Shown: positions 2,453 to 34,789, counted from the first letter of the stretch. The stretch is 40,566 nt of DNA from an uncultured archaeon (GCA_964447495.1 CAYUTF010000022.1:1-40566), one strand, 5' to 3'. Notes: generated from the letters alone by a model not told the origin. A program made the numbers and translations.

Positions 2453-3502
2453 TCAACACCTTCATTAGATATGAGTTCTTTTCTTTCTTCTTCTTGAATT
2501 CTAATCTGGAAAAATCTTCTAAAACTTGCTAAGTCTCTACTCATAGAATTTACGTTAATCCCCTTTTCTAGCATAAACTGTATTAATTTGGGTAAATTTT
2601 CCTCAAACGACTCCATTAGCACTTCTATTACTTCATTCCCTACTCTTAATACTTTTTTTATTGATGAGAATTCTTTTATTTGGTCAATTTTTGCTTCATT
2701 TAATTTGGTTATTTCAAATCTGGCTACCAATCCTTCACTCGGTAAGGAATTTATTAAATTTTGCGGTGAATCAAATTCTAACATACGGCCTTCCCTCAAA
2801 ATCGCCGTTTTATCACAGATTAAAGCCGCCTCTAAATCGTGAGTGATAATAAACATGGTGGTATTTAGTTTTTGATTCAATTTTTTTAAATAACTTAGAA
2901 TATCATATCTCTTAGACGCATCCACGCCTAAAACTCTATCAGTTTAAATAACTTAATAGTGTAGTCGGCTCGTCTAAGAATAGTACACTTGGTTTATGTA
3001 TAAGTCCAATTGCCATAGATAATCGCTTCTTTTCTCCTCCACTCATGTGCTTTACTTTTTTATTCCAAACATCTTCGGGAATATCTAATATTTTAAACAA
3101 CTCTATAGCTATCTCTCTAGCCTCCTCCTTTGATAAGCCATAGGTAGATGTGAAGACTTCTACGTTAACTAATGGACTGAGATCAAAGTATAAGTTTAAT
3201 AATTCGAGCTGGGGGACGTATCCGATATTGCTTAGTATTCTTGGATGGTTTTTTTTATTAGCAGGTGATAAACCAGTTACTTTTACATCACCATTCCAAT
3301 TTTTCTTTTCTATTTGGCATGTAAGAACACGAACAATTGTAGTTTTACCCGCTCCAGAAATGCCAAACAAGCCAATAATCTCCCCTTCATTCACCGTAAA
3401 TGAAACATTATGTACTATATGATTTTTATCAAATTTAACATTTAAATTGTTTACTTCTACCATTGGTTTATTTAATTTAACACTTTTGTTCATTAGCGCC
3501 AT
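2446..3502 (-). CDS. ABC-2-type exporter ATP-binding protein, 341 aa after removal of a 31-nt intron; join(complement 3502..2961, 2929..2446)
   Basis: ORF 2939-3502 has Walker A GISGAGKTT, signature MSGGEKKR and Walker B LFLDEPTT, then diverges into LLSYLN*. ORF 2446-2925 continues VDASKRYDIL...FIITHD (H-loop). Removing 2930-2960 gives the continuous consensus FLDEPTTGVDAS. Confidence 0.88.
2930..2960 (-). other. Predicted 31-nt BHB (tRNA-endonuclease-type) intron in an mRNA
   Basis: Pre-mRNA: GCC|GACU|AC^A|CUAUU-A-AGUU-AUUUA-AACU-GAUAG|AGUU|UU^A|GGC. It has a 4-bp central helix GACU:AGUU, two 3-nt bulges (ACA, UUA), an exon stem GCC:GGC, and a 9-bp exon-exon inverted repeat (2910-2918 / 2971-2979). 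Confidence 0.85.
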
Positions 3503-3793
3503 AAGCTTTCTGTAATTTTATTCTTATAGTATATATAGATTATTTTCTTTTAATAATATAGTTTCAATGGATCAATTTTTAAAATATAAATTATAAAGTA
3601 GAAATACTATGAAAGATAACTTCTTTCCAACATCATTCAGTACTCGCTTAGCTAAAAATCCAATAGATTTTTTATAATTTTCGCTTCCCTAATCAGTATC
3701 GCAAATTAATAAATAAAAAAAAAATATAAAATTTTTTAATAAAGGTAGTTTTGTTTTTCTGAAAAGTAATTGAATTAATGAAAAAAGGATTTT

Positions 3794-4591
3794 TTATTTT
3801 ACTTCCATTGTATTAAAAGATCTTGCTCCCAATAAAATAAGAATTGTCCCAAAAGCACCTACAATTAAAAAATCTAACCAAATTGGGAAAAAAGAGGCTC
3901 CTACTAATACCGCTCTGAAAAGATCTACACTATAAGTAAAAGGATTGAACATCGCGACTATACCTAAAGGTCCGCTTATAACATAAAACGCCCCTGATAC
4001 CAAAAACATAGGCATGACGATAAATGTTTGTATTAAACCAAAGGATTGAAAATCTCTCATTCGAGTGCTAATTGTAAGGCCCAATCCTACAATACCTATG
4101 CTTGCTAATAATGCTACTGGAAGAATCAAAATAATTTTCAATATTAAGATAAGATTATATCCAAAATATCCGAAAATCACGCCCAATATGACAATAATAA
4201 ATACTTGTATTAATGTTTGTAAAGCAACGCCTAAAGTTTTTCCCAACATTAATGTTCGTCTGCTGACTGGAGCAACAATTAATTCTTTCATAAATCCAAA
4301 CATCTTATCTCTCATTACTCCCATACCACCAAAAATTCCGGTAAACAGAATAACTATAGCAGCTATTCCTGAAGCGGCATAAGCTCTAGGATCAACAGAT
4401 ACTCCATTTATGAGTACTGATGAACTTGATGTTTGAAGAGCGGAGCTAAAGACAAACAAAAAGAGTATGCCTTGAACTATTGATGAAATTAATCTAGTCT
4501 TATTCCGCCAAAATTCATAAATTTCTCTTCGAGCTAATATCCATATGGCCTCAAAATTCAAACCAGTTTTTATAACATTCAAATCTGACAT
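3794..4591 (-). CDS. ABC-2 transporter permease (DrrB-like)
   Basis: Six hydrophobic segments, with RDKMFGFMKELIVAPVSR, PMFLVSGAF and NPFTYSVD motifs typical of ABC-2 permeases. Adjacent to an ATPase. Confidence 0.9.
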   Translation of the reverse strand: MSDLNVIKTGLNFEAIWILARREIYEFWRNKTRLISSIVQGILFLFVFSSALQTSSSSVLINGVSVDPRAYAASGIAAIVILFTGIFGGMGVMRDKMFGFMKELIVAPVSRRTLMLGKTLGVALQTLIQVFIIVILGVIFGYFGYNLILILKIILILPVALLASIGIVGLGLTISTRMRDFQSFGLIQTFIVMPMFLVSGAFYVISGPLGIVAMFNPFTYSVDLFRAVLVGASFFPIWLDFLIVGAFGTILILLGARSFNTMEVK

Positions 4592-4596
4592 TTATA

Positions 4597-5922
4597 TCAC
4601 TTCGTTAATTGCCTCATTTGTATACGGTTTTTTATATCTTTGGTAGTGTTGGAGGTTTCTTCTCTAATTTCAGATCCAACAAAATGTAAAAAAACATCTT
4701 CTAATTTTGGTTCATGGACATTCACAGTTTTTATTGTTAGATTACTTTCATCGACTTTTCTAATGACATCTGAAAGACATGTACCTCCATGTTCACACGA
4801 AATTGAGATTTCTGTTTCAGAATCCTTTTGATCCTCTGAAATTTCTCCTTTTTTAATTTTTATGATCTCTTGTTTAATTCCATCGGGTACTTGATCGAGC
4901 AGGTCGTCAGTAAAAAGATCAGCTATCCTCTTTTTTACCTCAAAAGGAGCATTTAGAAGCATTTGTGATGCCATTGGAAATCGCTTTAATGCAGTTAATA
5001 GCTTTTTCGGATCGGACATCATATCCCTCATTTGAGCCTTAATCATTTCAGGATTAATATTTGGCATATTTTTCGGAAGATTTAAATTCGTAAACATGGC
5101 ATCACTACTTGCCATTGAATGTCCAAATGAAATGTTCTTAATACTTGATAGTTCTCTAATTTGCGAAACAAAATCCATGATTTTCATTCTATCGTCAATA
5201 TTATCAAATTTTATGTCAATTATATCCCCAGAAATTTGTTTTTTAAGATTATCGGATGTATCTAAAGCAATAATTTTTCCATGATCCATAATACAAATCC
5301 TATCTGCTAATTCGTCTGCTTCTTCCATATAATGGGTCGTTATTAAAATTGTTATACCTAAATCACGATTCAATTCCCTAATTTTTTCCCATATCTTATG
5401 TCTGGTCTGAGGATCCAATCCTAAAGTTGGTTCATCAAGAAACAGCATTTTTGGCGATTGTAATAACCCCCGAGCTATTTCTAATCTTCTTTTCATTCCT
5501 CCGGAATAATTTTTTACAAATGTATCTGCTTTATCTTGTAAATCTACTAAATTAAGTACTTCATTAATCTTTTCTTTCCTTTGCGATTTTGGCATCTTAT
5601 ATAAAATAGCATGAAGTTCTAAATTTTCCTGCCCTTTCATTTCACCATCTAAGGATGGCTCTTGAAAAACAATCCCTATACTTTTTCGGACTTGACCAGG
5701 ATCTTTTTGAACATCAAATGAATTTATTGTTGCTGTTCCCTTTGTGGGATTTAAAATTGTGGATAATATAGAAATAGTAGTGGTTTTTCCCGCACCATTT
5801 GGTCCTAAAAGTGCAAAAATTTCACCTTTTCTTATTTCAAAACTAATATCATCAACAGCTAGAACATTACCTTGTTCATATATCTTAGTTAAGCCCTTTA
5901 CTTCAACTATATTTTCTGACAA
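4597..5922 (-). CDS. ABC-2 transporter ATP-binding protein (DrrA-like) with an approximately 100-aa Met/Pro-rich insertion in the C-terminal domain
   Basis: GPNGAGKTT, YSGGMKRRLE, LFLDEPTLGLDPQ, TTHYMEEAD and C-terminal PKLEDVFL. Confidence 0.93.
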   Translation of the reverse strand: MSENIVEVKGLTKIYEQGNVLAVDDISFEIRKGEIFALLGPNGAGKTTTISILSTILNPTKGTATINSFDVQKDPGQVRKSIGIVFQEPSLDGEMKGQENLELHAILYKMPKSQRKEKINEVLNLVDLQDKADTFVKNYSGGMKRRLEIARGLLQSPKMLFLDEPTLGLDPQTRHKIWEKIRELNRDLGITILITTHYMEEADELADRICIMDHGKIIALDTSDNLKKQISGDIIDIKFDNIDDRMKIMDFVSQIRELSSIKNISFGHSMASSDAMFTNLNLPKNMPNINPEMIKAQMRDMMSDPKKLLTALKRFPMASQMLLNAPFEVKKRIADLFTDDLLDQVPDGIKQEIIKIKKGEISEDQKDSETEISISCEHGGTCLSDVIRKVDESNLTIKTVNVHEPKLEDVFLHFVGSEIREETSNTTKDIKNRIQMRQLTK

Positions 5923-6293
5923 TTTATATATTACCTTCCTATTTTACTAAATTTTAATTTTAAAAAGTTATTTTTTTTAGATTTACTATTTATTTAATCA
6001 TAAATACTATATTATTAGACGATTTCTCTGAATTATTAAAAGTATTTTCGATGTTAAGGATCAGTCTTGAATGATCTCTAAGAAAAAATAAATAATCTGT
6101 TAATAATTTAAAAATAAGATACTGAGTTAAACATTTTGTTTATAAAAATTAAATTATTAAAATAAAGCCCCAAAGACACATAAATAATGCTTTTTTAAAA
6201 ACATCGAAATATATCTCAAGAACTAGTTGTGATCATTTATATTATCAATAGTTGCCATCGTTTCTGTGAATTCTGTTAGCATTTGAATATTTA

Positions 6294-7523
6294 CTATACC
6301 TCGTATTTTCTTCTTTTAAATATAATAAATGATATTAAAACTAGAACAGTACTAAGTAGTAATAACGCAAAGAAGTCAAATCCAAAAACCGATTTCCCTT
6401 TCGTAATAATTCCTCTAATCATAGGATCACCATGAGATAATGGTAGAATATATGCAATAATTTGTAAATACACCGGCATAGCATCAATTGGAATAAAAAT
6501 TCCACTGAGCAATAAGATTACTATAAACACGGCAAAAAACAACTGATTTGCCTCTGTTTTTGTTTTGCTTTGGGTACTAATGAAAATACCCATTGATAAT
6601 CCAGTAAACCCTATGCTAAATAATGCAATAAATAAATCGAATACACTTCCAGCAAGATAGAGGCGACAAATTAGAGTGCTAATGATTAGTAAGATAACTT
6701 GAAATATAAGTATAAGCGTATAAGTAAAATATTTAGACAAAAGGATTTCACTCCGCTTTGCTGGGGTTAATAATAATCGGGCAACAGGTTTCTCTTGCAC
6801 AACGACTAATATGGTGAGCACCATCGATACTCCAAAGACGATAAATGATAGAGTTAGGGTAATATTATAGTTGAATCGCAAATTATATCCTTCAGGTATA
6901 GAAAATTCTTCGTAACCAGTAAGTTCAAATTGAGGGGTCAAATTGTTATCATTCACAAATATTTTAATTGAATCAAAAACAGCATTCAAGGTGTCCTGAA
7001 TACTTTGTATATCTGAAGCATCTGGAACACAATCTATCAATCCTGGTAAACCTAATGTTATGAATTCCGAAAAGGCGACAGGTATGGCTATAATAACTTT
7101 AATCTCACTTGATATTAACATTAACCTTGCAGTTTCCATGGCATAAATCTCCTCTGTGGCATTATAGAAATGAAGTATATTCAAATATTCTGATTTATTA
7201 ACCGCGTTAATATATGGGAGGGTATAATCATCTCGCACTGATCCATTTAATATGCTATCATCAATATATACGTTCGAATCATAGGAAATGACAACACAAT
7301 CTATAGGTTGTAGTTCATCGGGAATGGCATTCATCATGAATCCAAATAAAAATATAATTAATGGTGGAACGACGATCGCAAGCAACATATTAAATTTATC
7401 AGTCCATAATAACAAAAATTCTTTTTTCATCTGACGTATGATTCTAAAGAGACTGCCCCGAATGTTATTAATATGAAATTTTCCTTCTTTACCATTTGAT
7501 TTTCTATTTTCACTTTCCCTCAT
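6294..7523 (-). CDS. ABC-2 transporter permease with large extracellular loop
   Basis: N-terminal TM, about 150-aa extracellular domain, then five TMs with RLLLTP, LSGIFIP and LPLSH motifs. Confidence 0.88.
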   Translation of the reverse strand: MRESENRKSNGKEGKFHINNIRGSLFRIIRQMKKEFLLLWTDKFNMLLAIVVPPLIIFLFGFMMNAIPDELQPIDCVVISYDSNVYIDDSILNGSVRDDYTLPYINAVNKSEYLNILHFYNATEEIYAMETARLMLISSEIKVIIAIPVAFSEFITLGLPGLIDCVPDASDIQSIQDTLNAVFDSIKIFVNDNNLTPQFELTGYEEFSIPEGYNLRFNYNITLTLSFIVFGVSMVLTILVVVQEKPVARLLLTPAKRSEILLSKYFTYTLILIFQVILLIISTLICRLYLAGSVFDLFIALFSIGFTGLSMGIFISTQSKTKTEANQLFFAVFIVILLLSGIFIPIDAMPVYLQIIAYILPLSHGDPMIRGIITKGKSVFGFDFFALLLLSTVLVLISFIIFKRRKYEV

Positions 7524-7527
7524 CGTT

Positions 7528-8682
7528 TTATACCTCTAATTTTTTAAATTTATAAATAATATATGCTAAAACGACGAAGATTAGCGAATTTAAATTTAGA
7601 AATAAAATATGATTTAAACTCATCGGTAGACCTTTTAAAGTGATATCTGTAATTAGAGGAATGGCATGACTTAATGGTAGGATATTTATTATATATTGCA
7701 TTGCAGGGGAAATTAACTCTGGCGGTAAAAAATTCCCTGAAAACAACACTATTACAATAAACATAATTAAATACATTTGATTAGCGCTTTGTTCTGTTGG
7801 GCTTAACGCAGAAATAAATAATCCTATACATATACCACAAAACCCAATCATCACTAAAGCTAGATAAAAATAAAACAATGATCCTAAACTATATAATCCA
7901 AAAAATGAAGTCATAATAAAGATTTCAGTCGATTGGAGAAACATAATTACAGAATTAGCAATTAATTTGCTCAAAATGATCTCTCTTTTTGTTGTTGGAG
8001 TAATTAGCATTCTTGGAAGTGGACCTTCTGATACGATTGAAAGAGAAGTCAAATTCATCGTGGTACCAAGAATAATTATGGGTAATATCAATGGTAAGGC
8101 ATAATTCAATAACTGTGATTCCCAAAAAGGGACATCAAATTCGAGATAAGGAACCATGATAGAAAAATTTGCAATTAAATCCGCTTCCGCTCTAAACAGT
8201 CCTATTGGTTCTTGAAGTGCTACCTCAACTGCGCTTACCGCGCTTAAATCTGAACCATCTATATAATAAAACAATACGGGATTTACCTTTTTTTCAACTG
8301 ATTCAGAAAAATTTTCCGGTAAAACAATGAAAATATCAACCTTTTCATCCTTTAAGAAATTATAGCATTTTAGATAGGCCGTATTATATTCTACTTCATT
8401 TGTACTATTAAAATATTGATGAAGATCCCACGCGGTACTATTATTGTCCATTATTGAGATAAAAATCTCATCATATTGAGATGAATTTGAAGGAAAATCA
8501 CCATAAGTGGGCATATCATCACGTGTGATGATTGCAGCAGTAAAAAATTTAGTTGGGCCTACTCCTGTTGTAAGACCAAATATAACGATTAAGATTATGG
8601 GTATTAAGAATAATAAAATTAGAGTTCTTCTATCAGATCTAATTCTCCCAAATTCTTTTTTTATTAACCCACCTAAACTCAT
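7528..8682 (-). CDS. ABC-2 transporter permease with large extracellular loop (paralogue of 6294-7523)
   Basis: LIKKEFGRIRSDRRTL start, RMLITP, FSGNFLP and LPLSH motifs; N-glycosylation-like sequons in the loop. Confidence 0.88.
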   Translation of the reverse strand: MSLGGLIKKEFGRIRSDRRTLILLFLIPIILIVIFGLTTGVGPTKFFTAAIITRDDMPTYGDFPSNSSQYDEIFISIMDNNSTAWDLHQYFNSTNEVEYNTAYLKCYNFLKDEKVDIFIVLPENFSESVEKKVNPVLFYYIDGSDLSAVSAVEVALQEPIGLFRAEADLIANFSIMVPYLEFDVPFWESQLLNYALPLILPIIILGTTMNLTSLSIVSEGPLPRMLITPTTKREIILSKLIANSVIMFLQSTEIFIMTSFFGLYSLGSLFYFYLALVMIGFCGICIGLFISALSPTEQSANQMYLIMFIVIVLFSGNFLPPELISPAMQYIINILPLSHAIPLITDITLKGLPMSLNHILFLNLNSLIFVVLAYIIYKFKKLEV

Positions 8683-8735
8683 TTAATTAAATTATTAAGA
8701 TTTCATTCTTAAAAATTTATTGGCGTATTAGCCAT

Positions 8736-9233
8736 CTATTTCAAATTTTTAGAGACATGTTTAGGAAGAATCTCTCTTTGAATGTCAAGAATTTGACTAT
8801 TATTTAAATGTTCTTTTCGTCTCATATCCTCTTCTATAAACTTCTGAAAAAGTTCATTATCATCAGTAATAAATTCCCAGAATTCTTCATATATTTCTTT
8901 TAAGGACATAGTTTTACGATTTTGCTGTAAAGTTACGGCAACAGCTGCTGAATTTTCGCGATTATCATTATTTAACGATTTTAACTCAATTTCTTTTTGA
9001 TTAGGAGTTTTCTTATCACATAATTCAAAATCTACTTTTTGAAATCCCCGAACAACGTAATTTTTATCAATAAAAAGTTGAAAATGATGATTGCAAATCT
9101 TTCCTTTTGGAATAGAGATCGTAGTAAGTTGTTTGGATTTATCTATAATTGATATTGGAATTTCTATAATTTCTTTAGCTTTGCATACCGGACAAGCTAT
9201 ACATATTTTCTTTAATTTATGAAGTATTTCCAT
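8736..9233 (-). CDS. Hypothetical protein with N-terminal Zn-binding domain (CPVC...CNHHF), of a type common in Lokiarchaeia
   Basis: 165-aa ORF with the CxxC...ISIPKGKICxHxFQLFIDKN...RGFQKVDF pattern. Confidence 0.7.
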   Translation of the reverse strand: MEILHKLKKICIACPVCKAKEIIEIPISIIDKSKQLTTISIPKGKICNHHFQLFIDKNYVVRGFQKVDFELCDKKTPNQKEIELKSLNNDNRENSAAVAVTLQQNRKTMSLKEIYEEFWEFITDDNELFQKFIEEDMRRKEHLNNSQILDIQREILPKHVSKNLK

Positions 9234-9402
9234 ATTGTTCTCAAAAAAATAATATCGTTATATTATTAGAGTATTTGATATTTTTGATTTAAATTCCAAC
9301 ATTTTTATAACCCAAAAACTGGACTCCAATTTTTTTTTAATTTACCCTTATCATTTCTTATTTAGAATTAAAAAATATTAATTAATGATAAGGTGGTAAA
9401 AA

Positions 9403-9918
9403 ATGGCAGATTGGAATGGTATTGCGGATCAAGCATTATTATATTGGCAAGAATTTGTTGCATGGTTCCTTAATATTCCTATTTATGGACAAATGTTAGT
9501 TATTTTTGGTGCTGTAGCGATTCTAGTTCTTACAGGCGTTTTAGTATATTATATACTTAAAGGTGTCGCATATCTGGTTTATTATATATTAAAAGGGGTC
9601 TATTTGCTTTTGAAAGGAATTCTATTAGGAATATACAAACTATTCGAAGAACTATATTATGGAATTTCGGGAAAACCAAAACCAATTAAACAACAAAAGA
9701 AAGTTGAGGTTAGTAATGAGTCCATTGAAGAGCCTCAAAAAGAAAGATCTATAGAACCTGAATTGCTGATGATTAATCCCAATGCTTCCTATTGTAGTGA
9801 ATGCGGAAATCAATTTACAGAAAAAATGCTTCAACAATTATCTGAAAATGGAGTAGTATTTTGTGTGAACTGTGGAAAAGGTTACAAAACTAATCTGATT
9901 GTTGTTGAAAATTATTAA
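9403..9918 (+). CDS. Membrane protein with C-terminal zinc ribbon
   Basis: Hydrophobic N-terminal half with repeated LVYYILKGV; C-terminal CSECG...CVNCG; GGTG Shine-Dalgarno-like sequence upstream; T-run after the stop. Confidence 0.75.
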   Translation: MADWNGIADQALLYWQEFVAWFLNIPIYGQMLVIFGAVAILVLTGVLVYYILKGVAYLVYYILKGVYLLLKGILLGIYKLFEELYYGISGKPKPIKQQKKVEVSNESIEEPQKERSIEPELLMINPNASYCSECGNQFTEKMLQQLSENGVVFCVNCGKGYKTNLIVVENY

Positions 9919-10092
9919 TTTTTTTTTCTCTTTTTTTGTGTGTAGAAGAAACAAAAAAATCACTATAATTAACAAAAATTGTTTATTAAATATGAAAATA
10001 TTTTGATTAGAGCGAATAGCTTTTATTAATTTATTGCTAAACGTAAATCGTAGGTAGTAAAATTTAATAATATCAAAAAATTTCTTTTATGA

Positions 10093-11256
10093 ATGTTATA
10101 TCAAGGATTAAGCAAACACGATTTGCTTAAGATATTAGATAAGAAATTATCTAATGATAATTCTTATGATTCAGGGTACATATTAGGCTCAATGTGTTCA
10201 AAAACTCCCGAATTTGTAAAAGATATATATGTTAAATACATTGATAAAAATCTGGGAGATCCCGGATTATTTAAAGGTACTAATCAGTTAGAGATAGAAG
10301 TTGTTAACGATATTGGTCAATTATTTGGAGGAAATAATATTGTTGGAACCATTACGACGGGTGGTACAGAATCAAATTTAATCGCCATGCTAATTGCTAA
10401 AAAATTAAGACCAGATATAAAGGAACCAGAAATTGTTATTTCAAAAGCAGGACATATTTCATTTGACAAAGCGGCTGATATGATGAATTTGAAAATAAAA
10501 AAAGCAAACCTTACTAACAATTATGATTTGGATTTTAATCATTTTAAATCATTAATTAATGAAAATACCTGTGCCGTAATCGGTATCGCCGGAACAACTT
10601 CGCTTGGAAAAGTAGATCCTATTGACAAAATTGGGGATTACGTTAATGGAAAGGATATCTTTTTTCATATCGATGCCGCATATGGTGGTTTCGTTTTACC
10701 TTTTCTAAAACATTTAAATTATAAAGTCTCCCCTTGGGATTTTAGCGTTAAATCAGTGGATTCCATTACCGCAGATCCACATAAAATGGGATTAGGAATT
10801 ATCCCTTCTGGAGGGTTATTTCTCAGAGATAACCCTGCTCTAGAAGATATAGGTGTTAGTATGCCATATTTAGCGGGAGGTGACTTTACGCATATCAATA
10901 TCGTAGGAACACGATCAGGCGCTCCAGTAATAGCTTTCTGGTCAATATTAAATTATTTTGGCATAAAAGGTTTTAAGGAAATAATCAAAGGATGTATGGA
11001 TAAGACCAAATTACTCGTAGAATTACTCACAGAAATAGAAGGAGTAACTCTCGCAACCGAACCTGATATGAATATAGTTGGGATTAAACCTTCAAAAGGC
11101 AGAAACTTATTAGAAATTGATCAAGCATTACGTAAAAGAAATTGGATGGTTGCCACTCACCCCGATTTTAATATAATAAGGATCGTAGTAATGCCTCATG
11201 TTCAAGAACATCATTTAATACAATTTTCTGAAGATTTAAAAGATATTTTAAAATAA
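10093..11256 (+). CDS. mfnA: PLP-dependent L-tyrosine/L-aspartate decarboxylase (MfnA)
   Basis: ILGSMC, NLGDPGLF, GGTESN, HISFDKA, HIDAAYGG, DPHK (PLP lysine), GTRSG and RIVVMPH motifs. Confidence 0.92.
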   Translation: MLYQGLSKHDLLKILDKKLSNDNSYDSGYILGSMCSKTPEFVKDIYVKYIDKNLGDPGLFKGTNQLEIEVVNDIGQLFGGNNIVGTITTGGTESNLIAMLIAKKLRPDIKEPEIVISKAGHISFDKAADMMNLKIKKANLTNNYDLDFNHFKSLINENTCAVIGIAGTTSLGKVDPIDKIGDYVNGKDIFFHIDAAYGGFVLPFLKHLNYKVSPWDFSVKSVDSITADPHKMGLGIIPSGGLFLRDNPALEDIGVSMPYLAGGDFTHINIVGTRSGAPVIAFWSILNYFGIKGFKEIIKGCMDKTKLLVELLTEIEGVTLATEPDMNIVGIKPSKGRNLLEIDQALRKRNWMVATHPDFNIIRIVVMPHVQEHHLIQFSEDLKDILK

Positions 11257-11280
11257 ATTCTAATTTTACTTTTGAAGCTT

Positions 11281-11580
11281 CTATTTTTTTAAGTTCTTTA
11301 TCTTCTTTCGAATTGACTTAAACTGTTTTTTATCTCCTGAAACTAAATGACAGATATACTTTTGATATGCTTCTATTGCTTCTTCATACTTCCCTAGTTT
11401 TTCAAAAAACTCTTCTAAGGCTTCATAACCTTCGGTACATTTTGAATCAATCTCTAAAGTTTTCTCAAATTGAGCAATTGCTTTATCATAATCCTGCAAA
11501 CTCTCATATATTTTGCTAATCCCCATATTAAATTCGAGAGAATTTGATTTCAATTTTAACGCTTCTTCGTATTTCTTTAA
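11281..11580 (-). pseudogene. 5'-truncated TPR-repeat protein remnant
   Basis: TPR-like LKKYEEALKLK...YDKAIAQFEKTLEID...LGKYEEAIEAYQK. The frame is closed upstream by TGA at 11581-11583 in the middle of a repeat. Confidence 0.6.
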
Positions 11581-11995
11581 TCAGAATCGAATATATGATC
11601 AAATGTACGCAATATTAAAAGGGAAACAATCAACAAGAAACACAAAACGAGCAGAAAGCAGCATAATAGTTAATGAGCTAAGTAATTTCAAAATAAAAGC
11701 TGGAGATATTCATTTAAAGATATGATATCAGATATTAAAGAAGGTTATTTCATTGATAAGTTATCGTGGTTAAATCTAGATAATGTATCGGGTAATTTTG
11801 GTGCAGGAATAAGAAGCGGATATTATAGTAAAAAGGGAGAGTTCCAAAATCAAAAAAAAAAAAAAACTAGGAAATGTAAGCGGTAATGTCCTTGAAATGA
11901 TGGAAAATTGCGTATATATCTCTAAAGAGCGTGAATTTACTGAAAACACACTTTTTGCATATATATTGTTTAAGAATTTAAATTTCTCTTCTTAA
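11581..11995 (+). pseudogene. C-terminal fragment of a PmbA/TldE-family protein, frameshifted
   Basis: Across frames it reads IYDQMYA...STRN...SNFKIKAGD / DMISDIKEGYFI...VSGNFGAGIRSGYY.KKGE / GNVSGNVLEMM...ISKERE...YILFKNLNFSS*. Frameshifts near 11712 and at the A15 run (11852-11866). Confidence 0.75.
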
Positions 11996-12119
11996 AATCA
12001 GAAAATTACTATTTTTACAATTACTTTTTTTATAATCCTAGCGCTTTGGCAGCATTAATTCCAAAAATTTTATCTTTTTTTTTTCATTTTATTATAAATA
12101 AACAAAATTATGAATAAAG

Positions 12120-12875
12120 ATGAAGGTTCTAATAAGTATTCGTTCACCTGAAGAATTAAGTTCCTGTATAGAAGGTGGAGCAGATATCATTGATTTAAAG
12201 AATCCTAATGAAGGATCTCTTGGTGCAGCTGCTCCATGGTTCATTAAAGAAGTTAAAGAAAGAGTTAAAGGATATCCTGTTAGTGCTGCAATTGGAGACA
12301 TGCCTAACTTACCAGGAACTGCTGCTTTAGCCGCAGTTGGGGCTGCTGTTTCTGGAGCGGATTATATAAAAGTTGGGTTATATGGAACTCATACTGAAGA
12401 TGAATGTATAAAGTTGATGAGTGAAGTTGTAAAAGCAATAAGAAAGCAGAATCCAAAAATAGTTATCGTTGGTGCTGGCTTTGCTGACGCAGAATCCTAT
12501 GGTGGAATTGACCCAATGAAAATACCAAGAATTATTAAAGCTGCTGGTGCTGATATTGCAATGTTAGACACGAAAAATAAAAATGGAAAAAGGTTGTTTG
12601 ACTTCTTAAGTTTAGATAAATTAAACCATTTTGTTGATGAATCTCATAGATTAGGCTTGCAAGCCGCTCTTGCTGGTTCACTCTGCGCTGAAGATCTTAC
12701 AACTATATATAATTTAGGAACTGATGTAACCGGTTTTAGAGGTGCGGCTTGCAGTAAAAATGATAGAAAGAACGGAGTAATTACAACTGAACGTGTATTA
12801 AAATTGATGAATATTGCTAAAAATTTAAATCTGCAATCAAAATTATCTATCAAAACTCAATTAATCGGAATTTAA
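12120..12875 (+). CDS. mfnB: (5-formylfuran-3-yl)methyl phosphate synthase (MfnB, 4-HFC-P synthase), copy 1
   Basis: LISIRS, GGADIIDLKNPNEGSLGA, VSAAIGD, DYIKVGL, MLDTKNK, ALAGSL and GFRGAAC motifs. Confidence 0.92.
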   Translation: MKVLISIRSPEELSSCIEGGADIIDLKNPNEGSLGAAAPWFIKEVKERVKGYPVSAAIGDMPNLPGTAALAAVGAAVSGADYIKVGLYGTHTEDECIKLMSEVVKAIRKQNPKIVIVGAGFADAESYGGIDPMKIPRIIKAAGADIAMLDTKNKNGKRLFDFLSLDKLNHFVDESHRLGLQAALAGSLCAEDLTTIYNLGTDVTGFRGAACSKNDRKNGVITTERVLKLMNIAKNLNLQSKLSIKTQLIGI

Positions 12876-13040
12876 AAATTATTTTTCTAATTTTTTATAG
12901 ATTAGAGTAACCAAAATCCAAGTGAAATAGGTCCCAAATCTTTTAGAATATATATCTTCTATTTCTATATTATTTAATTTCATATGAAATCCTTTCTAAA
13001 TAATTAATATCTATTATTCTTTATTTTCATTCAAATATAT

Positions 13041-13066
13041 GCGTTATGCATAGGGAAACATAACGC
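13041..13066. promoter_or_regulatory. Palindromic operator resembling a ModE (molybdate/tungstate regulator) box
   Basis: GCGTTATG-CATAGGGAAA-CATAACGC: perfect 8-bp GC-containing arms in an AT-rich spacer about 140 bp upstream of the ferredoxin-AOR operon. The CG-to-CG span of 24 bp matches the ModE consensus CGnTATATA-N6-TATATAnCG. Confidence 0.65.
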
Positions 13067-13207
13067 CTCCTTCCAATCTCCTTCACAAATCATCATCAAG
13101 TTTAAATCTAATTTTTGATTATTAATAATTAATTATTATTTTTTGAATATTTATTCAGAATAGTAATAATTCCATCTTAAAACAACAACAAAAAAGATCG
13201 ATAAAAG

Positions 13208-13462
13208 ATGTCAACGGTAAGTATTAGACATGTTATGCAGAAGTGCTATGCATGCAGGACATGCGAATTAGCATGCTCATATCACCACACAGGGTCATTC
13301 CAACCTTCAAAATCTAGTATATCTGTTGAAAGAGATCATATTAACGGAGAATGGAAGTGGAGTTTGGATGATTCATGTGATTTATGTGAAAATGAAGCTG
13401 AACCTTTATGTGTGAAATATTGTTTTTATGATGCAATCGTTATTGAAGGAGGGGATAAATAA
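13208..13462 (+). CDS. 4Fe-4S dicluster small subunit associated with the AOR-family enzyme
   Basis: CYACRTCELAC and CDLC...PLCVKYC motifs; ends 2 nt before the AOR start. Confidence 0.88.
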   Translation: MSTVSIRHVMQKCYACRTCELACSYHHTGSFQPSKSSISVERDHINGEWKWSLDDSCDLCENEAEPLCVKYCFYDAIVIEGGDK

Positions 13463-13464
13463 AA

Positions 13465-15384: not shown

Positions 15385-15425
15385 TTTTTTTTATTTTCAG
15401 TATTTAATTTTTTCTTTTTTTTTTT
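15385..15425 (+). terminator. Oligo-T tracts, probable archaeal terminator
   Basis: Several T runs immediately after the AOR stop codon. Confidence 0.5.
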
Positions 15426-22941: not shown

Positions 22942-22970
22942 TATTAAAAATTATTATAAGACAGAGTAAA

Positions 22971-23795: not shown

Positions 23796-23837
23796 TTATT
23801 TAAAAAATAATAGAAAGAAGAGAATAGAAAGAAAAAC

Positions 23838-24185
23838 ATGAAAGAATTAACAAAAAATAAAATTAAAATTATAAAAAAAAAATTCAAGAATGATACCTCT
23901 TATAAGTTCTTACGAGAATGTATGGAAATCATAGGCAATAAAGACAGATTTTTAATTTTAAATCTATTAAATAATAAACCATGTTTACTCTCTGATATTG
24001 AAAAAAGCCTGAATAGAAGTCAACCTTCCATCTCCCATCATATTAGAATTTTGGAAATACATAAATTTATTTATAGTTCTAACAAAGGTAAATTCAAGGA
24101 ATATTCAATTTCCAGAGAAAAGTTTGTAAAATTATTAAACATTTGGAATCAATGGTTTCAGGCAATTCGATCCAAGAATTATTGA
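23838..24185 (+). CDS. ArsR/SmtB family transcriptional regulator
   Basis: DRFLILNLL...CLLSDI...SQPSISHHIRIL...GKFKEYS. Confidence 0.85.
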   Translation: MKELTKNKIKIIKKKFKNDTSYKFLRECMEIIGNKDRFLILNLLNNKPCLLSDIEKSLNRSQPSISHHIRILEIHKFIYSSNKGKFKEYSISREKFVKLLNIWNQWFQAIRSKNY

Positions 24186-24353
24186 ATTAGAATTAGGTAT
24201 TTTCTTTCAGCATTAAATTACGGATAAAACTCTAGTTTTGAGAAATTTTTTGAAAATAGAATAATTCTTTTATGATAATTTTTTTTTCCTTATTTTCTTT
24301 TTTTTTAATTTTAAACAAGGTTTTCTAAAAATCTGATTTTTTTCATAGAATTT

Positions 24354-25487
24354 TTATATTGAATGAACAGAAAATTTTTGTAATCGTTTAAGAGCACTAA
24401 TTTTATCATTCTTTTGTAAATGGGCTGCGTCTATAGCCTCTGATAGTATTTCTGCACATCTTTCCATTCTTTTTAAATTAACAAGGTAAGGAATACCATC
24501 TTTTCCACCAAAAGCAAAAGAATATTTAGCAGGATCCTTCCAACAAGGTGGCGACCCCCAGATGAATTCTGATATTAAAGCTAATGCCCTAATCATCCCT
24601 GGGCCAAAACCATGAAGCTTTAAAAGTTCTGTATAATCATTTATGCCTAAATTTTTGGCTAAATCGAGAGTTTCCCATTTTAAAGTAAAAGGAATCGGCA
24701 TTTTAAGATGAGGGAGAGTACAACATTTATATCTAGAGGCTGGTGCTAAGAAATCATCTAAGGAAGTTTGATTTTTGCTTTTTAATCTTAAATTTAAAAT
24801 CATGTTTTTAACCCTTTTAGAACCTTCCGATAGTAGATCTAACGAAACTTTTCTGCATTCTTCACTTTCCCTGGAAACTAAATTCATGACATTCTCTTTA
24901 AAAATTTCGGAACTAATATTTTTATGAGGATCATTGAGATAACTTTCTAAATTATCTGATATCCAGTGATATCTTCTAGCTTTGCCAATATTTGCGTCAA
25001 GTCCTTGTTGAATTATCCCCCAATTTTTCTCTGATACAATCATTAAGTGATGATACAATGAAAAACCATCTTGAATCGCCGCATTATCTATTTTTGCGAC
25101 GAGCCGGCTTGTTTCACTCAATTGGTTCACATCGTCATCAGTATAATCCAAAAATTTCGCTTTTTCTAATAAATGTTCCTTAACTTTTGTAGAGTTTTTT
25201 CCTTTTCCTCCCGCAATAATTAATCCATGCTCTTCAGGGTTGATAATCTGTTTTAAAACACCACCTAATACTGTTGTGCAACCACTTGAATGCCAATCAA
25301 AACCCAATATACATGCTAATCCTTGAAACCAAAATGTATCAGAAAGTCTTTTGATTATCCCTTTTGCTCCTTCTATTTCATACAAGATATCAAAAATGGG
25401 TTTACCTAAAAGATTCATCCTTTTTATTAACCACATTGGAGCTTTACTTCTGTGAAGGGGAAGGGTTGCGATACTGACTTTACTCAT
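24354..25487 (-). CDS. DUF763 family protein
   Basis: LPLH, WFQGLACILGFDWHSSGCTT, GGKG, KIDNAAIQDGF.LYHH, RRYHW and DPAKYSFAFGGKDG motifs. Confidence 0.88.
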   Translation of the reverse strand: MSKVSIATLPLHRSKAPMWLIKRMNLLGKPIFDILYEIEGAKGIIKRLSDTFWFQGLACILGFDWHSSGCTTVLGGVLKQIINPEEHGLIIAGGKGKNSTKVKEHLLEKAKFLDYTDDDVNQLSETSRLVAKIDNAAIQDGFSLYHHLMIVSEKNWGIIQQGLDANIGKARRYHWISDNLESYLNDPHKNISSEIFKENVMNLVSRESEECRKVSLDLLSEGSKRVKNMILNLRLKSKNQTSLDDFLAPASRYKCCTLPHLKMPIPFTLKWETLDLAKNLGINDYTELLKLHGFGPGMIRALALISEFIWGSPPCWKDPAKYSFAFGGKDGIPYLVNLKRMERCAEILSEAIDAAHLQKNDKISALKRLQKFSVHSI

Positions 25488-26464: not shown

Positions 26465-26474
26465 ATTACCAACC

Positions 26475-30410: not shown

Positions 30411-31022
30411 ATGACGAATTATATTGAAGAACACTATATTCATTCAGAATATGATGAAATTTTTAATAATTGGTATGAAATTGAAGGCTTAAGAAAGATA
30501 AGAGAGCTTTCACGCCAACTCCGAACTTTTTTCAATTACAAGGCTGAAGTGATAAGATATCGATTTCATCCCAGTCCCATACTTATCAAAAATTATGTGA
30601 ACACTAAATTTTTTAGTCATAAACAAAAAATCGAATCTTTAGCTAAAGATTTCATTACTTTGCTTAAAAATGTAAAAAAATCAAATCAAACTGTTGAAGA
30701 AGGGATTCACTCTCTTTTTTTTAACAATAATAAAGCAATATTACAAAAACTCTTAGACCTCACAGAGAAATTGTTCATATTAATTCACTATTTATCAGAG
30801 GAGAGCATTTACGATCATCCAAAATTCCTCAAATTTATCATGGTATTGGCACAAAACACTTCATTGGTGAAAAAATGCTTAAATGCACAATTCAGCAAAT
30901 TTTATGAAGAGCTTGAAAAAAACTACAATCGTCTAGAAGGAGAATTGGAGGTTCTTTTAGAAAAAGAACCAACGAAGCCCATAAGATCAAAAACACAACT
31001 TGAGGAGAGATTAACATCATGA
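30411..31022 (+). CDS. Hypothetical helical protein, translationally coupled to the HNH gene
   Basis: 203-aa ORF whose stop overlaps the next start (ATGA at 31019-31022). Confidence 0.65.
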   Translation: MTNYIEEHYIHSEYDEIFNNWYEIEGLRKIRELSRQLRTFFNYKAEVIRYRFHPSPILIKNYVNTKFFSHKQKIESLAKDFITLLKNVKKSNQTVEEGIHSLFFNNNKAILQKLLDLTEKLFILIHYLSEESIYDHPKFLKFIMVLAQNTSLVKKCLNAQFSKFYEELEKNYNRLEGELEVLLEKEPTKPIRSKTQLEERLTS

Positions 31023-33382
31023 AGGTATATACCCCCGTGTCACGGAAAAATATAGGAGAGGATCGAGTGGCAATCTGTCCAAATTTTGGATGCGAATACA
31101 TGACACGAGTTAAACCTCTTAAATTGCGGTTCCTTGGGTTTGGTAAGCAACCTAAATGTAAGAAACATCGCATCCCTTTAGTCTATGTTGATGAGGGGAT
31201 TGTTGATTTTGTGGATGCCGCATTAGCGTGTTTGTTTGATAAAGCAGGACTTCCTCCTCGTGAATTGTTCAAGAGTATTAAAAAACAATTTCCCGATGAA
31301 ATTAACTCATTTATAGAAGGATGGATATATTGTATCACGATTGGAAGAGGCATATCAATAATTTCGCGTTACATGGACACGGTTTCGAATGTATATCTCA
31401 AGCAATTAACCAAAAAACAAATTAAAGCATTGAAGATAAGTAAAAATATTAAACCAAATCTTGTGAACAAAGCGATTAAAGATGGAATGGATGAAATTGC
31501 TATCCAATATGAAAGGATTCTTAAGCATCTGAGAGTCCATTCCGAGATCCTCAATGATCAACAAAAACTTCAGTCACTATCAAAAGGTCTTAGAAAATTC
31601 TTAGAAGAGTGGCAAAAAAATGCGCTTAAACATAATGAGATCATGAATTCAACAGAAATTAAGCGTGATATGACATTATTAGAAATCAAAACTAATTATG
31701 ATCAAATCCTAAACGTTGGAACTTGTCGATGTCTTCTTGGATTTAAATTTGAAAGTAAAGAACAAAAAGAAACAGGCTTAACAGCTTTTGATAGGTTTTC
31801 TGCTTATCATGATTTTTATATTGAAGGATTAACTACGAAATTTACTAAATCTGATATCTCAGCACTTTATTCAGAAAACGTCTTAATTAATAAATTAAAT
31901 AACTCGCCTGAAGAATGCTCTGATAATATGAATGAGGATAAAATTTCCGTAATTAAGAATAAATTAAAGAAAATTGATTGGTCTAAGGTGAGTAATTGTT
32001 GGCAAGTTAGATTTCGAAAAAATCAGTATTCTAATTATAAAATTATTGAATTAGATCCAAATAAGGAATGTTCTCAATGCAACCCCCTATATAAACATAA
32101 AAAATGGGTCAAGCGTGTTTATTATGATACGAGGTTTGATATGACAGATGAAAAATTAGCAGAATTATGTAATATTACTAAACTTACTGCTAATTATTGG
32201 CGTAGATATAAACACGGTATCATAGGAAAAGAGAAATGGGGAAAGGGCCGCTGGATTGATAATAGAAGTGGGAGAATTTATGTCAGAATATCAGATGATT
32301 ATAACCATCCTGAATTGAAAAAGAATCCAAGTAGAAAAAAAACTTATCGTCTTGAACATATCTTTATTATGGAACAATATTTGGCAAATCACCCAGAGTT
32401 AGATATATCTAGAAAGTATTTAATTAAAGGTAAATACCTCAAAATTGAATGTGAAGTACATCATATAAATTTTGATCCCCAAGATAACAAAATAGAAAAT
32501 TTATGGATATATGAAAATAAAAAAGCACATTCAATAGGAGAAAAATCGATAAGAAAAGTTTTTTCTGAGCTAATTATGTTGGGATGTATCTTATTCTCAA
32601 ATGGAAAATATTCTTTAAATCAAAACTTTGATCTTAATTTTCACTCTGATCCAGCACTCAAGGAATTTAAAAATTTTCAACCAATATCTTATCAGAACAT
32701 TAATTTGAATGATATAAAAGAAGTAATTAAAAAAATTAAATGGTATGAAATTTCAAATGATTGGAAAGTAATTAAACGATTCAATCAATTTAAGAATATA
32801 ATTATTGACCTAAATCCATATAAGGATTGCTCTGAAGAAAATCCGTTATATATGCATAAACACTGGTTTTCAAGGATATATAATGATCCAAACTTAAATT
32901 TATCTGATTCAAAAATGGGAAAGATTTGTAAAATCTCCAACGATAAGGCAAGATATTGGAGAGAAAAGATACACCAGATTGAAGGAAAAAAAGAATGGGG
33001 AAAAGACAAATTAATTGACAAATCTGATGGGCGTATTTGGATACGCGTTCCTAAAAGTTATTCAAATCCAGTTGTTAATAAAAAAGATACCCATCGAAGA
33101 ATAATGCTTGAACATAGATATATAATGGAAAAACACTTATCTGCTCATCCTGAATGGGGTATATCAAAAAGAACGCTTGAAAAAGGTAAATATTTGAAAT
33201 CAGATAGTGAAGTTCACCATATAAACCTTAATTATCAGGATAACAGATTAGAAAATCTATGGGTTTTTGAAGCTAATGATGAACATCAAGAAGCAAGAAG
33301 ATCTTTATATAAGCTAGTTGAAAAACTGATGAAATTGGAATTAATAAAATTTGAAAATGGATTTTATAGGTTAAATTATTAG
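31019..33382 (+). CDS. Protein with N-terminal Cys/His Zn-binding domain and two tandem HTH-like plus HNH endonuclease units
   Basis: CPNFGC...CKKH. Unit 1: EHIFIMEQYL...EVHHINFDPQDNKIENL...H. Unit 2: EHRYIMEKHL...EVHHINLNYQDNRLENL...H. Confidence 0.82.
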   Translation: MKVYTPVSRKNIGEDRVAICPNFGCEYMTRVKPLKLRFLGFGKQPKCKKHRIPLVYVDEGIVDFVDAALACLFDKAGLPPRELFKSIKKQFPDEINSFIEGWIYCITIGRGISIISRYMDTVSNVYLKQLTKKQIKALKISKNIKPNLVNKAIKDGMDEIAIQYERILKHLRVHSEILNDQQKLQSLSKGLRKFLEEWQKNALKHNEIMNSTEIKRDMTLLEIKTNYDQILNVGTCRCLLGFKFESKEQKETGLTAFDRFSAYHDFYIEGLTTKFTKSDISALYSENVLINKLNNSPEECSDNMNEDKISVIKNKLKKIDWSKVSNCWQVRFRKNQYSNYKIIELDPNKECSQCNPLYKHKKWVKRVYYDTRFDMTDEKLAELCNITKLTANYWRRYKHGIIGKEKWGKGRWIDNRSGRIYVRISDDYNHPELKKNPSRKKTYRLEHIFIMEQYLANHPELDISRKYLIKGKYLKIECEVHHINFDPQDNKIENLWIYENKKAHSIGEKSIRKVFSELIMLGCILFSNGKYSLNQNFDLNFHSDPALKEFKNFQPISYQNINLNDIKEVIKKIKWYEISNDWKVIKRFNQFKNIIIDLNPYKDCSEENPLYMHKHWFSRIYNDPNLNLSDSKMGKICKISNDKARYWREKIHQIEGKKEWGKDKLIDKSDGRIWIRVPKSYSNPVVNKKDTHRRIMLEHRYIMEKHLSAHPEWGISKRTLEKGKYLKSDSEVHHINLNYQDNRLENLWVFEANDEHQEARRSLYKLVEKLMKLELIKFENGFYRLNY

Positions 33383-33522
33383 AAAATGGTCAAATTTTAG
33401 GTCAAATGTAAAAACAACGATCAATTCAAATTACAATATTTTAAACAACAAAACCTGAAATTTTAAGAATTAGAGAATAGTAACAACATTATTATTTCAA
33501 ACATTATTAATTTTCTAGAAAG

Positions 33523-34789
33523 ATGTTAGAGCTAAAAAACTTAAAAAAGGAATGGCGAGCCATAATGTCCTGTATAGAATTTAGATATTTAATCTAATTC
33601 GCAGATGGGGTGTGGAGATTGTGGCTTCGCCATCCGTCCCGCTGTGGGCAGATATTTAACTTGTCCTGTAAAAGAGGCTAAAGGAGATCAAGGATTTGAG
33701 ATCTATTTTGCTCGAGGGCGTATGAATGTCCTTAAAAGCATCTTAGAAGGGAAAATACCATTAAGTCGAGAACTTGCAGAGTATGTGTATCAATGTTCTG
33801 AATGTGGTAATTGTACTGAAGTTTGTCATCAGAGTCAAAATGAATACATTATCCTTCCTACGAGCAAATGGATTGATCATGTTGAGGTGTGGAATGCATT
33901 AAGAAAAGATTTAGTAGAAGCAGGATTTGCACCTCTGGAAAAACATAGTAAATTGATTGCTTATATGAATAATGAAACCATGAGAAATCCTTATGGTGAA
34001 GATGAAAGTAAAAAATTCGAGTGGATCAAAGAATTTCCAAATATCAAAGAAAAAGCAGATTTGGTATTTTTCGGAGGCTGTACGATGCCATTGCGACAAG
34101 TAAGTACATTAAGAAGCATGATCAAGATTCTTAATGCATCTCAAATAGAATTAGCAATTTCAAAGGATGAATGGTGTTGTGGCTCCATCGCAATTCGCAT
34201 TGGCGATGAGGAATCCGTTAAGAAGAATATAAGACATAATGTTGATATCTATAGTGAAATGGGTGCCAAAACAGTATTTTCTGCATGTGCGGGGTGCTAT
34301 AGAACGTTAAAGAAAGATTATCCAAAAATTCTTGGTGAAGAATTACCCTTTGAGGTGAAACATATCACTGAAATTCTAATTGATTTATTGAAATCAGATA
34401 AAATCCCTTTTAAGGAAGATCAAGGAGAAAAGCAAGTAGTTACATATCATGATCCCTGCCATCTTGGTCGCCATATGAATCTTTATCAAATTCCTCGAGA
34501 GGTTCTTTCTAAAATACCTGGTGTTGAATTAGTGGAAATGAAAAGGAATAAAAAAAATGCTTGGTGTTGTGGTGCTGGTGGAGGAGTTAAAAGTCAATAT
34601 CCAACCTTAGCTTTAGACATTTCAAAAGATCGCATAATGGAAGCGATAAATACTGGCGCAGACATTCTAACTACTAGCTGTCCCTTCTGCATTGGAAATT
34701 TTATAGATGCCTATAATGATCTAGAACCAGAACTCCAAGAAAAGATTACTGTAATCGATATAATAGACTTAATTGCTTCAAAAATCTAA
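33523..34789 (+). CDS. Fe-S oxidoreductase (GlcF/GlpC/HdrD-like, 2x4Fe-4S plus 2xCCG), 411 aa after intron removal; join(33523..33575,33607..34789)
   Basis: Upstream mini-ORF MLELKNLKKEWRAIMSC supplies the first Cys. The spliced product reads SCMGCGDC...CP (CxxCxxC), followed by CSECGNCTEVC, WCCG, CAGC, YHDPCHLGR, CCGAGGG and CPFC. Confidence 0.88.
33576..33606 (+). other. Predicted 31-nt BHB intron in an mRNA
   Basis: Pre-mRNA: UC|CUGU|AU^A|GAAUU-U-AGAU-AUUUA-AUCU-AAUUC|GCAG|AU^G|GG. It has a central helix CUGU:GCAG, 3-nt bulges AUA and AUG, and an exon-exon helix of 33552-33566 with 33618-33633. Confidence 0.85.

Follow-up and report, generated by a model that had tools for sequence, protein, structure and literature searches.

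Predicted bulge-helix-bulge mini-introns in protein-coding genes of an Asgard archaeon and its relatives

Results

Two interrupted genes on one archaeal contig

The stretch of DNA analysed here (the window) is the whole of contig C22, 40,566 bp long, from the metagenome-assembled genome (MAG) G000 of an uncultured archaeon (GCA_964447495.1; 3.81 Mb in 223 contigs, 31% G+C), and it carries two protein-coding genes, on opposite strands, that are each interrupted by an insert of 31 nucleotides (nt): one for an ATP-binding cassette (ABC) transporter ATPase, the other for an iron-sulfur (Fe-S) protein with CCG and Fer4_8 domains (Table 1). Relatives identified through one G000 protein are MAGs of Promethearchaeota, Hodarchaeota or Hermodarchaeota, which makes the host an Asgard archaeon. 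Throughout, other G-numbers stand for related MAGs and L-numbers for individual loci.

On re-reading of the sequence, both inserts—here intron 1 and intron 2—lie where a first-pass annotation had placed them, and the hairpin that it described (5 bp, 1-nt bulge, 4 bp, ATTTA loop) is present in each. As it had also noted, the four nucleotides after each hairpin are complementary to the gene's own 5′ exon (GACU:AGUU and CUGU:GCAG, respectively), each insert splits a codon after its second base, and in both cases the seventh codon past the break is a stop. Neither core motif has a second occurrence in the window, chance expectations being 0.01 and 0.00. The further claim that the stem differences are compensatory holds between orthologous introns (see below) but not between the two window introns, which are merely two different sequences that each pair.

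Both inserts fit the canonical helix-bulge-helix-bulge-helix (hBHBh′) motif of archaeal bulge-helix-bulge (BHB) introns without adjustment, with a 4-bp central helix and two 3-nt bulges, and cuts after the second base of each bulge fall exactly at the positions that restore the reading frame. The outer, exon-exon helices measure 3 and 2 bp, and the inner, intron-intron helices 5 bp plus 4 bp. Intron 1 has an outer helix GCC:GGC and bulges AC/A (5′) and UU/A (3′), the slash marking the predicted cut (pair counts: central 4/4, outer 3, inner 6); it is made up of the third base of the first bulge, a 24-nt hairpin, the central-helix strand AGUU and the first two bases of the second bulge. Intron 2 has an outer helix UC:GG, 4/4 central pairs and bulges AU/A (5′) and AU/G (3′). 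An exact-architecture scan of the 3.8-Mb genome, with G-U pairs allowed, returns 45 matches, among which only the two window introns combine an ATTTA loop with restoration of a gene. One look-alike, on contig C39, was rejected, the strand being non-coding there.

Table 1 Features of the two interrupted genes and their predicted introns (window coordinates)
Feature	Start	End	Strand	Details
ABC ATPase, 3′ exon	2446	2929	-	D-loop GVDASK, H-loop region, C-terminal domain; open reading frame (ORF) 2446-2925, stop 2446-2448
Intron 1, hBHBh′ motif	2926	2969	-	outer helix 2967-2969:2926-2928; central helix 2963-2966:2932-2935; bulges 2960-2962 and 2929-2931
Intron 1 (predicted)	2930	2960	-	31 nt; between 5′ exon end (2961) and 3′ exon start (2929)
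ABC ATPase, 5′ exon	2961	3502	-	ATG at 3502; Walker A, signature motif, Walker B; ends ...DEPTT, codon split after base 2
CCG protein, 5′ exon	33523	33575	+	ATG at 33523; 17 codons + 2 nt (53 nt); first Cys of CxxCxxC
Intron 2, hBHBh′ motif	33568	33609	+	outer helix 33568-33569:33608-33609; central helix 33570-33573:33601-33604; bulges 33574-33576 and 33605-33607
Intron 2 (predicted)	33576	33606	+	31 nt; architecture as intron 1; central-helix strand GCAG
CCG/Fer4_8 protein, 3′ exon	33607	34789	+	ORF 33605-34789; Pfam CCG 130.8 bits

The ABC ATPase matches Pfam ABC_tran with 92.8 bits, its orthologues align across residues 1-182, and the frame of its 3′ exon is reachable only once the 31 nt are removed. 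In the CCG protein ORF the match to Fer4_8 does not begin before profile position 8. The ATG at 33605 consists of the last two bases of intron 2 and the first base of the 3′ exon, so that gene callers would start the CCG gene at this intron/exon border.

Orthologous genes with and without the inserts

Both predicted junctions are found uninterrupted in relatives. Across 15 orthologous ABC loci (from congeners and one order-level relative), 13 have no insert and encode EPTTGVDASK, i.e., the predicted junction, while the ABC gene of G018 carries a 31-nt insert at the same bond as G000, with the same stem-closing bases, the loop AAUUC and a central helix that is altered relative to G000 yet still pairs. 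The CCG comparison comprises 23 orthologous loci, 15 of them uninterrupted, with a conserved N-terminus (MSELKHLK..W.AI.SCM) that continues directly into ..SCMGCGDC, again the predicted junction. The remaining eight, in G000 and seven other genomes, have an insert at the same bond, of 31 nt (G000, L031), 30 nt (G021, G012, G019), 29 nt (G003), 56 nt (G004) or 61 nt (G018).

All these data come from short-read metagenome assemblies, which might raise the suspicion of assembly or sequencing artefacts. Genomes of other species, assembled independently, nevertheless have diverged inserts at the corresponding sites. A comparison of window 1-20000 with two further DNA runs (X2 and X3, salt marsh) and two RNA runs (X10 and X13) gives DNA depth in every bin, with no deletion or joint reported at 2930-2960. 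We regard an artefact as an extremely remote prospect.

The two longest CCG inserts, those of G004 and G018 (L004 and L114), are nested double introns of 30+26 and 30+31 nt, respectively. In both pairs the 3′ splice site of the first intron is the exact position of a second BHB intron, which takes the GCAG strand of the first as its own 5′ central-helix strand; removal of this second intron recreates an ordinary 30-nt intron, and all four elements have 3-4 of 4 central pairs. Since the second intron uses the central-helix strand of the first, the order of removal would be obligatory (twintron-like splicing). The two nested introns of G018 both start with AGGUUU.

Covariation was tested on an alignment of the six single CCG introns, taking the BHB and the lower stem together (11 pairs). 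Of the cells, 93.9% are paired as against 33-50% with slid partners, six of the 11 pairs have changed on both sides, and none of 500 shuffles reaches the observed covariation score. As the sequences are few and related, we take this result as supportive rather than conclusive.

The codons on either side of the ABC insert point in the same direction. The genes of G000 and G018, both with the frameshifting intron, differ at more than half of their codons, and the pattern in the 3′ exon (59 identical, 61 synonymous and 34 nonsynonymous) is the same as that in exon 1 (71, 71 and 38). This excess of synonymous changes downstream of the intron, as upstream, argues that the downstream frame is translated in both lineages; judged by these codons, the 3′ exon is under purifying selection in a frame that only excision yields.

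Similar predicted mini-introns in acetyl-CoA synthetase, EF-1alpha and other genes

The inserts are not confined to the two window genes. In a survey of the acetyl-CoA synthetase gene (acs) covering 42 genomes of the genus, 17 of 30 loci have a full frame of 662-682 amino acids (aa), and six genomes together hold 15 inserts of 30-42 nt at eight sites, with a maximum of six in one gene (G023). All 15 fit the BHB register at the protein-preserving cut; at one G018 site the cut implied by the BHB lies one base off that implied by the alignment, with the encoded residue unchanged. In G000 itself, acs (contig C50) is split by a 32-nt intron and has an additional 33-nt insert. At the acs loci of G004, G021, G046 and G019 (L146, L147, L150 and L151) a contig ends inside the gene, which in G004 and G021 is divided between two contigs; assemblies could be breaking within acs where strains differ in the presence of introns.

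The translation factor EF-1alpha is represented by a single match in 38 of the 42 congeners, and in three of these, rated 95-100% complete, the gene has 33 extra bases and two in-frame stops inside the P-loop codons. A wider sample of 141 genomes of the class gave a match in 130, and 14 odd-looking rows were examined; EF-1alpha introns occur in 11 of the 130 genomes, which is a lower bound because only the flagged rows were examined. Eight genomes from three genera have a BHB intron of 31-33 nt in the P-loop, between the GHIDHG and KST codons, with an identical AUGG:CCAU central helix and differing hairpins. Three further sites lie 12 nt (G014) and 6 nt (G115) upstream of the P-loop site and, in G068, a member of another family, at ..EM/HHE... 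The gene is uninterrupted in G000, G144 and G069. In G017, inserts with in-frame stops are found in the genes for an amidohydrolase, an acyl-CoA dehydrogenase, an unnamed protein and EF-1alpha, and the expectation that such introns would occur in several unrelated genes of the lineage is thus borne out (ABC, CCG, acs, EF-1alpha and the further G017 genes).

The resulting catalogue comprises 42 introns in 7-8 genes and at about 18 sites, with lengths of 26 (one), 29 (one), 30 (18), 31 (seven), 32 (nine), 33 (five) and 42 nt (one). In the canonical register 41 of the 42 have at least three of four central pairs (mean 3.67), as opposed to 2-9 of 42 when the register is slid by 1-3 nt (means 1.29-1.71); the 42nd is the G003 CCG intron, which was listed with one base too many and scored 1/4 in this tally, and which pairs 4/4 when read as 29 nt. 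The sites lie within strongly conserved motifs (Walker B/D-loop, CxxCxxC, P-loop, and WQTETG, GEPINPEAW and YYTGDGA of acs), a placement that may reflect easier detection where sequences align well. In almost every entry the 5′ bulge begins with A, and 24 of the 42 lengths (30, 33 and 42 nt) are multiples of three, above the one-third expected by chance.

Two readings in which nothing is spliced can be weighed at this point. The inserts could be inactivating insertions that leave pseudogenes, or could simply be translated where they are in frame and free of stops: gene callers would indeed see frameshifts or truncations, stops are missing from some of the acs inserts of 30 and 33 nt, and an unspliced CCG mRNA still offers the ATG at 33605. 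Against this stand the 61 synonymous to 34 nonsynonymous changes downstream of the ABC frameshift, genes that are 79-92% identical to intact orthologues with no other lesion seen, and stops inside the P-loop codons of a single-copy EF-1alpha gene in three genomes of such high completeness; in addition, the genome has no repeat family, and by eye no direct repeat flanks the inserts. This reading seems to us very improbable. A comparably poor prospect is that the inserts are kept in the mRNA and that the ribosome bypasses them by hopping or frameshifting, in the manner of T4 gene 60. The early stop beyond the break and the hairpin that opens the gap would suit it, as known bypass elements have both; the codons before the gap and before resumption, on the other hand, differ (ACA versus UUA in ABC, AUA versus GAU in CCG, with EF-1alpha likewise mismatched), bypass gives no reason for a 4-bp helix between exon and intron, for 3-nt bulges or for their covariation, and nested introns whose second BHB is built on a strand of the first make sense solely for sequential cutting of RNA.

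Frequency within genomes and absence of a sequence family

The first-pass annotation had supposed a family of introns, many of them genome-wide, joined by a conserved apical hairpin. The introns are in fact alike in structure and in almost nothing of their sequence. A blastn-short search with both introns and their flanks finds only the introns themselves in the genome, all other matches being 17 nt or shorter, and the AUUUA loop is replaced by AAUUC, AAUUA or AUUUC in orthologous introns. Since there are no other copies in the genome and the loop varies even between orthologues, the two window introns are, by these sequence comparisons, not members of a sequence family, and their likeness (31 nt, stem plan, ATTTA loop) is best read as convergence on a minimal size in an AT-rich genome. 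Nor do they resemble a miniature inverted-repeat transposable element: no similar copies were found in the genome, and no flanking direct repeats were seen by eye.

Abundance was estimated by comparing 1.55 Mb of the congener G017 with G000 in both directions, which yielded clear counterparts for 887 of 1,633 G017 ORFs and 940 of 4,289 G000 ORFs. A screen for split high-scoring segment pairs (HSPs) returned seven rows for G017 ORFs and 11 for G000 ORFs, with the 32-nt intron of G000 acs as the sole intron. The other rows are gene fusions, neighbouring genes and a domain insertion: HdrA and MvhD, which one genome has as a fusion and the other as separate genes; a pair of neighbours at about 22.1 kb on C50; and, on C1, an FN3-like domain inserted in frame. 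Genes for HdrA-like and MvhD-like proteins that are either fused or separate and overlapping (G000 C5, ~15.8-18.9 kb; G017 C17, ~308.7-311.1 kb; paralogues) are the source of most false split-gene signals. A screen for in-frame inserts found BHB geometry in seven of 73 inserts in G000, versus three with mirror geometry, and in eight versus three of 70 in G017. Rows that looked real numbered two in G000 (the acs insert of 33 nt and, as a weak candidate, one on C76) and four, all strong, in G017. The C76 candidate (8696-8725, 30 nt, with an in-frame stop) depends on a 47%-identity alignment near the N-terminus and is counted as possible only, so that the G000 total stands at four secure introns (two in acs, one each in ABC and CCG) besides this candidate.

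The sampled comparison thus places introns in 1-2 genes of G000 and four of G017 per ~900 orthologue pairs. Neither this count nor three ab initio censuses, which show no excess (see below), support the supposition of many introns genome-wide. By extrapolation from the sampled sequence, a genome would hold on the order of ten introns, compared with the ~190 implied by two per 40 kb; ten is to be taken as a floor, because the screens miss short 5′ exons, such as that of the CCG gene, and sites common to both genomes. Within the window, no further intron was found in the 17.8 kb that can be compared with syntenic contigs of five relatives. BLAST of joined peptides across paralogues picked up the ABC intron, through 11 ungapped alignments to paralogues, and gave 18 candidates with true geometry versus 13 with mirror geometry; the remainder mostly belong to a repeat protein on C16/C26, and the candidates on C25, C1, C15, C49, C18, C76 (3397-3505) and C94 were unconvincing by eye. 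The phenomenon spans more genes and more taxa than the two window loci suggest, and is sparser per genome than had been supposed.

Genomic neighbourhood of the two genes

Directly upstream of the CCG gene lies an ORF of 787 aa (31019-33382, + strand) with a C-terminal HNH_3 endonuclease domain (PF13392), which looks internally duplicated, its two similar halves each ending in HHIN...QDN..ENLW. In five relatives the syntenic contigs lack any counterpart of the segment 30289-33583. The distance between the ABC and CCG genes is 30 kb in the window versus 11-13 kb in G007, G011, G018, G020 and G021, and the ~14 kb at 9916-24359 give no tblastn match of at least 50% identity in the syntenic contigs of these five genomes; this segment may be an inserted element.

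Splicing enzymes and points for and against splicing

The genome encodes the enzymes that BHB splicing would call for: EndA is represented in G000 by two homologues (201 and 205 aa, encoded on contigs C196 and C3), both of which combine a catalytic-type with an N-terminal domain (PF01974 and PF02778), and RtcB by one gene (561 bits). As described in the available text of PMC5829648, Asgard EndA takes the (alpha-beta)2 form, with a loop that confers broad substrate specificity, and the presence of two EndA genes agrees with this account. ARAGORN predicts 56 tRNA genes in G000, 15 of them with introns, several of the calls having implausible intron sizes and being unreliable; 16 tRNA genes stand within ~13 kb on one contig.

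The inserts might instead be removed from RNA by other machinery, i.e., another structure-specific endonuclease and ligase or a self-cleaving activity, and the hairpin alone could serve another nuclease as a recognition element. What speaks against this is the pairing of the 5′ exon with the 3′ end of the intron, with both cuts after the second base of a 3-nt bulge, a register that is the signature of EndA and that holds in 41 of 42 introns versus 2-9 of 42 when slid. Moreover, a search of the whole window against Rfam 15, ribozymes and group I/II introns included, gives no match at gathering thresholds, and the genes for EndA and RtcB are at hand. Other machinery is therefore unlikely, if somewhat less so than bypass or pseudogenes.

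Several observations weigh against the splicing of these inserts. Every genome compared is metagenome-assembled. RNA contigs from X10 and X13 fall only at 4787-5895 and 9725-9875, with a few short pieces, and none lies on intron 1; a DNA contig bridging 2930-2960 was likewise not seen directly among the pieces listed for X2 and X3. The outer helices of the two window introns are short, which brings the motif nearer to the relaxed forms accepted by broad-specificity enzymes. RNAfold z-scores for 71-nt windows are unremarkable to modest (-0.76 and -2.03), and for both introns the minimum-free-energy structure contains the hairpin but not the full BHB. Several of the in-frame acs inserts have no stop codon, and their translation as insertions of 10-11 residues is possible in principle. 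Finally, three ab initio censuses show no excess over controls: a strict one (hBHBh′ with ORF restoration) gave 1278 candidates versus 1227 with mirror geometry, where false positives at gene junctions swamp the signal; one with a relaxed central helix and an inner helix of at least 5 bp gave 5982 versus 5901; and one restricted to 26-45 nt, with ORFs of at least 60 codons on each side and an RNAfold hairpin filter, gave 1192 loci versus 1141-1215 in slid registers. The three censuses do not discriminate, and place only loose bounds on the true number.

The organism, or a close strain of it, seems to be present in both RNA libraries (word shares 0.09 in X10 and 0.05 in X13), as near-identical contigs from both runs cover the region of a second ABC ATPase (4597-5922, - strand, 441 aa), which adjoins an ABC-2 permease (3794-4591); besides 9725-9875, this is the only part of window 1-20000 so covered.

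On balance, the geometry, the agreement of the junctions with intron-less orthologues, the covariation, the selection downstream of the insert, the EndA and RtcB genes and the recurrence of such inserts all support the presence of BHB introns in protein-coding genes of this Asgard archaeon, and we hold it highly likely that both window inserts are archaeal BHB introns inside mRNAs. The mechanism put forward in the first-pass annotation is very probably right, and from the above we infer cutting by EndA, ligation by RtcB and splicing in vivo.

Discussion

The proposed course of splicing is as follows. After transcription, a 4-nt stretch of the 5′ exon would pair with another close to the intron's 3′ end, the intron hairpin stacking on one side of this central helix and the short exon-exon helix on the other, so as to present two 3-nt bulges on opposite strands. 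A heterotetrameric splicing endonuclease, built from the products of the two EndA genes, would cut after the second base of each bulge, and RtcB would join the exons and probably circularise the intron. Only the spliced mRNAs would encode the full ABC ATPase (...DEPTT/GVDASK...) and the full Fe-S protein (...SCM/GCGDC...).

We consider it most likely that the introns are tolerated passengers, mobile in evolution and subject to gain and loss within the genus, and we do not think of them as regulators. The position of the second nested intron, exactly at the 3′ cleavage site of the first, hints that new introns may enter at sites that EndA can cleave, for instance by reverse ligation followed by reverse transcription and recombination. 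More broadly, it is probable, with less assurance than for the two window introns, that an entire Asgard family, together with one or more other families of its class, maintains a turning-over set of ~30-nt BHB mini-introns in protein genes, the P-loop of EF-1alpha included, such that obligatory mRNA splicing by (alpha-beta)2 EndA and RtcB would be part of normal gene expression.

If true, the lineage closest to eukaryotes would have interrupted protein genes and mRNA splicing before or during translation, which bears on the origin of introns and of uncoupled translation and on the ancestry of RtcB-dependent mRNA splicing (XBP1/HAC1). For annotation, it means that intron-bearing genes are called as frameshifted, truncated or stop-containing, and that they may be mis-scored as pseudogenes, recoded stops or missing marker genes in Asgard MAGs. 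Presence/absence polymorphism at ~18 sites constitutes a natural data set for the gain of BHB introns, and nested and polymorphic introns make the mechanism of gain testable; where the introns occur (Asgard) and what they interrupt (EF-1alpha) add to their interest.

Introns of the tRNA machinery in protein genes are known essentially from cbf5, and their presence in many Asgard genes, an essential translation factor included, would change that. In their available text, papers on the structure and evolution of EndA cite only cbf5 among protein genes (PMC5829648, PMC12397907), and that of a 2026 review of non-canonical splicing contains no archaeal mRNA case (PMC13149111). Two reports on interrupted tRNA genes of some Asgard families (PMC11291895; bioRxiv 10.64898/2026.10.13.758758) treat, in the portions available, tRNA introns only. 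A literature search, with subscription journals and supplementary files outside its scope, turned up no publication that describes BHB introns in protein genes of Asgard archaea.

Among known systems, there is a likeness to HAC1/XBP1 splicing (Ire1 with tRNA ligase or RTCB) and to SOS splicing, in which, going by the available text of PMC12779559, the base-paired ends of transposon inserts trigger their excision from animal mRNAs. In each, paired stem-loops in an mRNA are cut by a protein endonuclease, and exon joining falls to an RtcB-type ligase. Both the endonucleases and the structures that they recognise are other ones, HAC1/XBP1 is a regulated single event, and the likeness is one of description only. 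Another such system is the HVO_1309 mRNA of Haloferax volcanii, reported in the accessible text of a 2020 study (PMC7714728) as an EndA substrate that adds one case to the 'one mRNA' in which the motif was previously known: here too an mRNA is cut at a BHB by an archaeal splicing endonuclease, but the case stands alone, comes from a euryarchaeon whose enzyme is alpha'2, and is not described as a set of introns that interrupt ORFs.

The BHB introns of archaeal tRNA and rRNA, as the partly available literature describes them, share with the Asgard mini-introns an hBHBh′ motif that is half exon and half intron, repeated gain and loss, multiple and nested introns, and (alpha-beta)2 EndA. In contrast with these, the hosts here are mRNAs, in which the motif's exon half consists of codons, with no pre-existing RNA structure to lean on, and in which splicing must compete with translation.

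A precedent of the same kind is the intron of the crenarchaeal cbf5 pre-mRNA (Watanabe 2002; Yokobori 2009, PMC2738675), a BHB intron within a protein gene whose splicing, according to the available text, was shown experimentally. Like the Asgard introns, it is present or absent among relatives, and it is removed by a hetero-oligomeric tRNA-splicing endonuclease, the type of enzyme that would act here as well. However, while cbf5 is, in that literature, one gene with one site, the Asgard lineage has at least seven genes and ~18 sites, with up to six inserts per gene, nested introns and the essential EF-1alpha among the genes whose mRNAs would have to be spliced.

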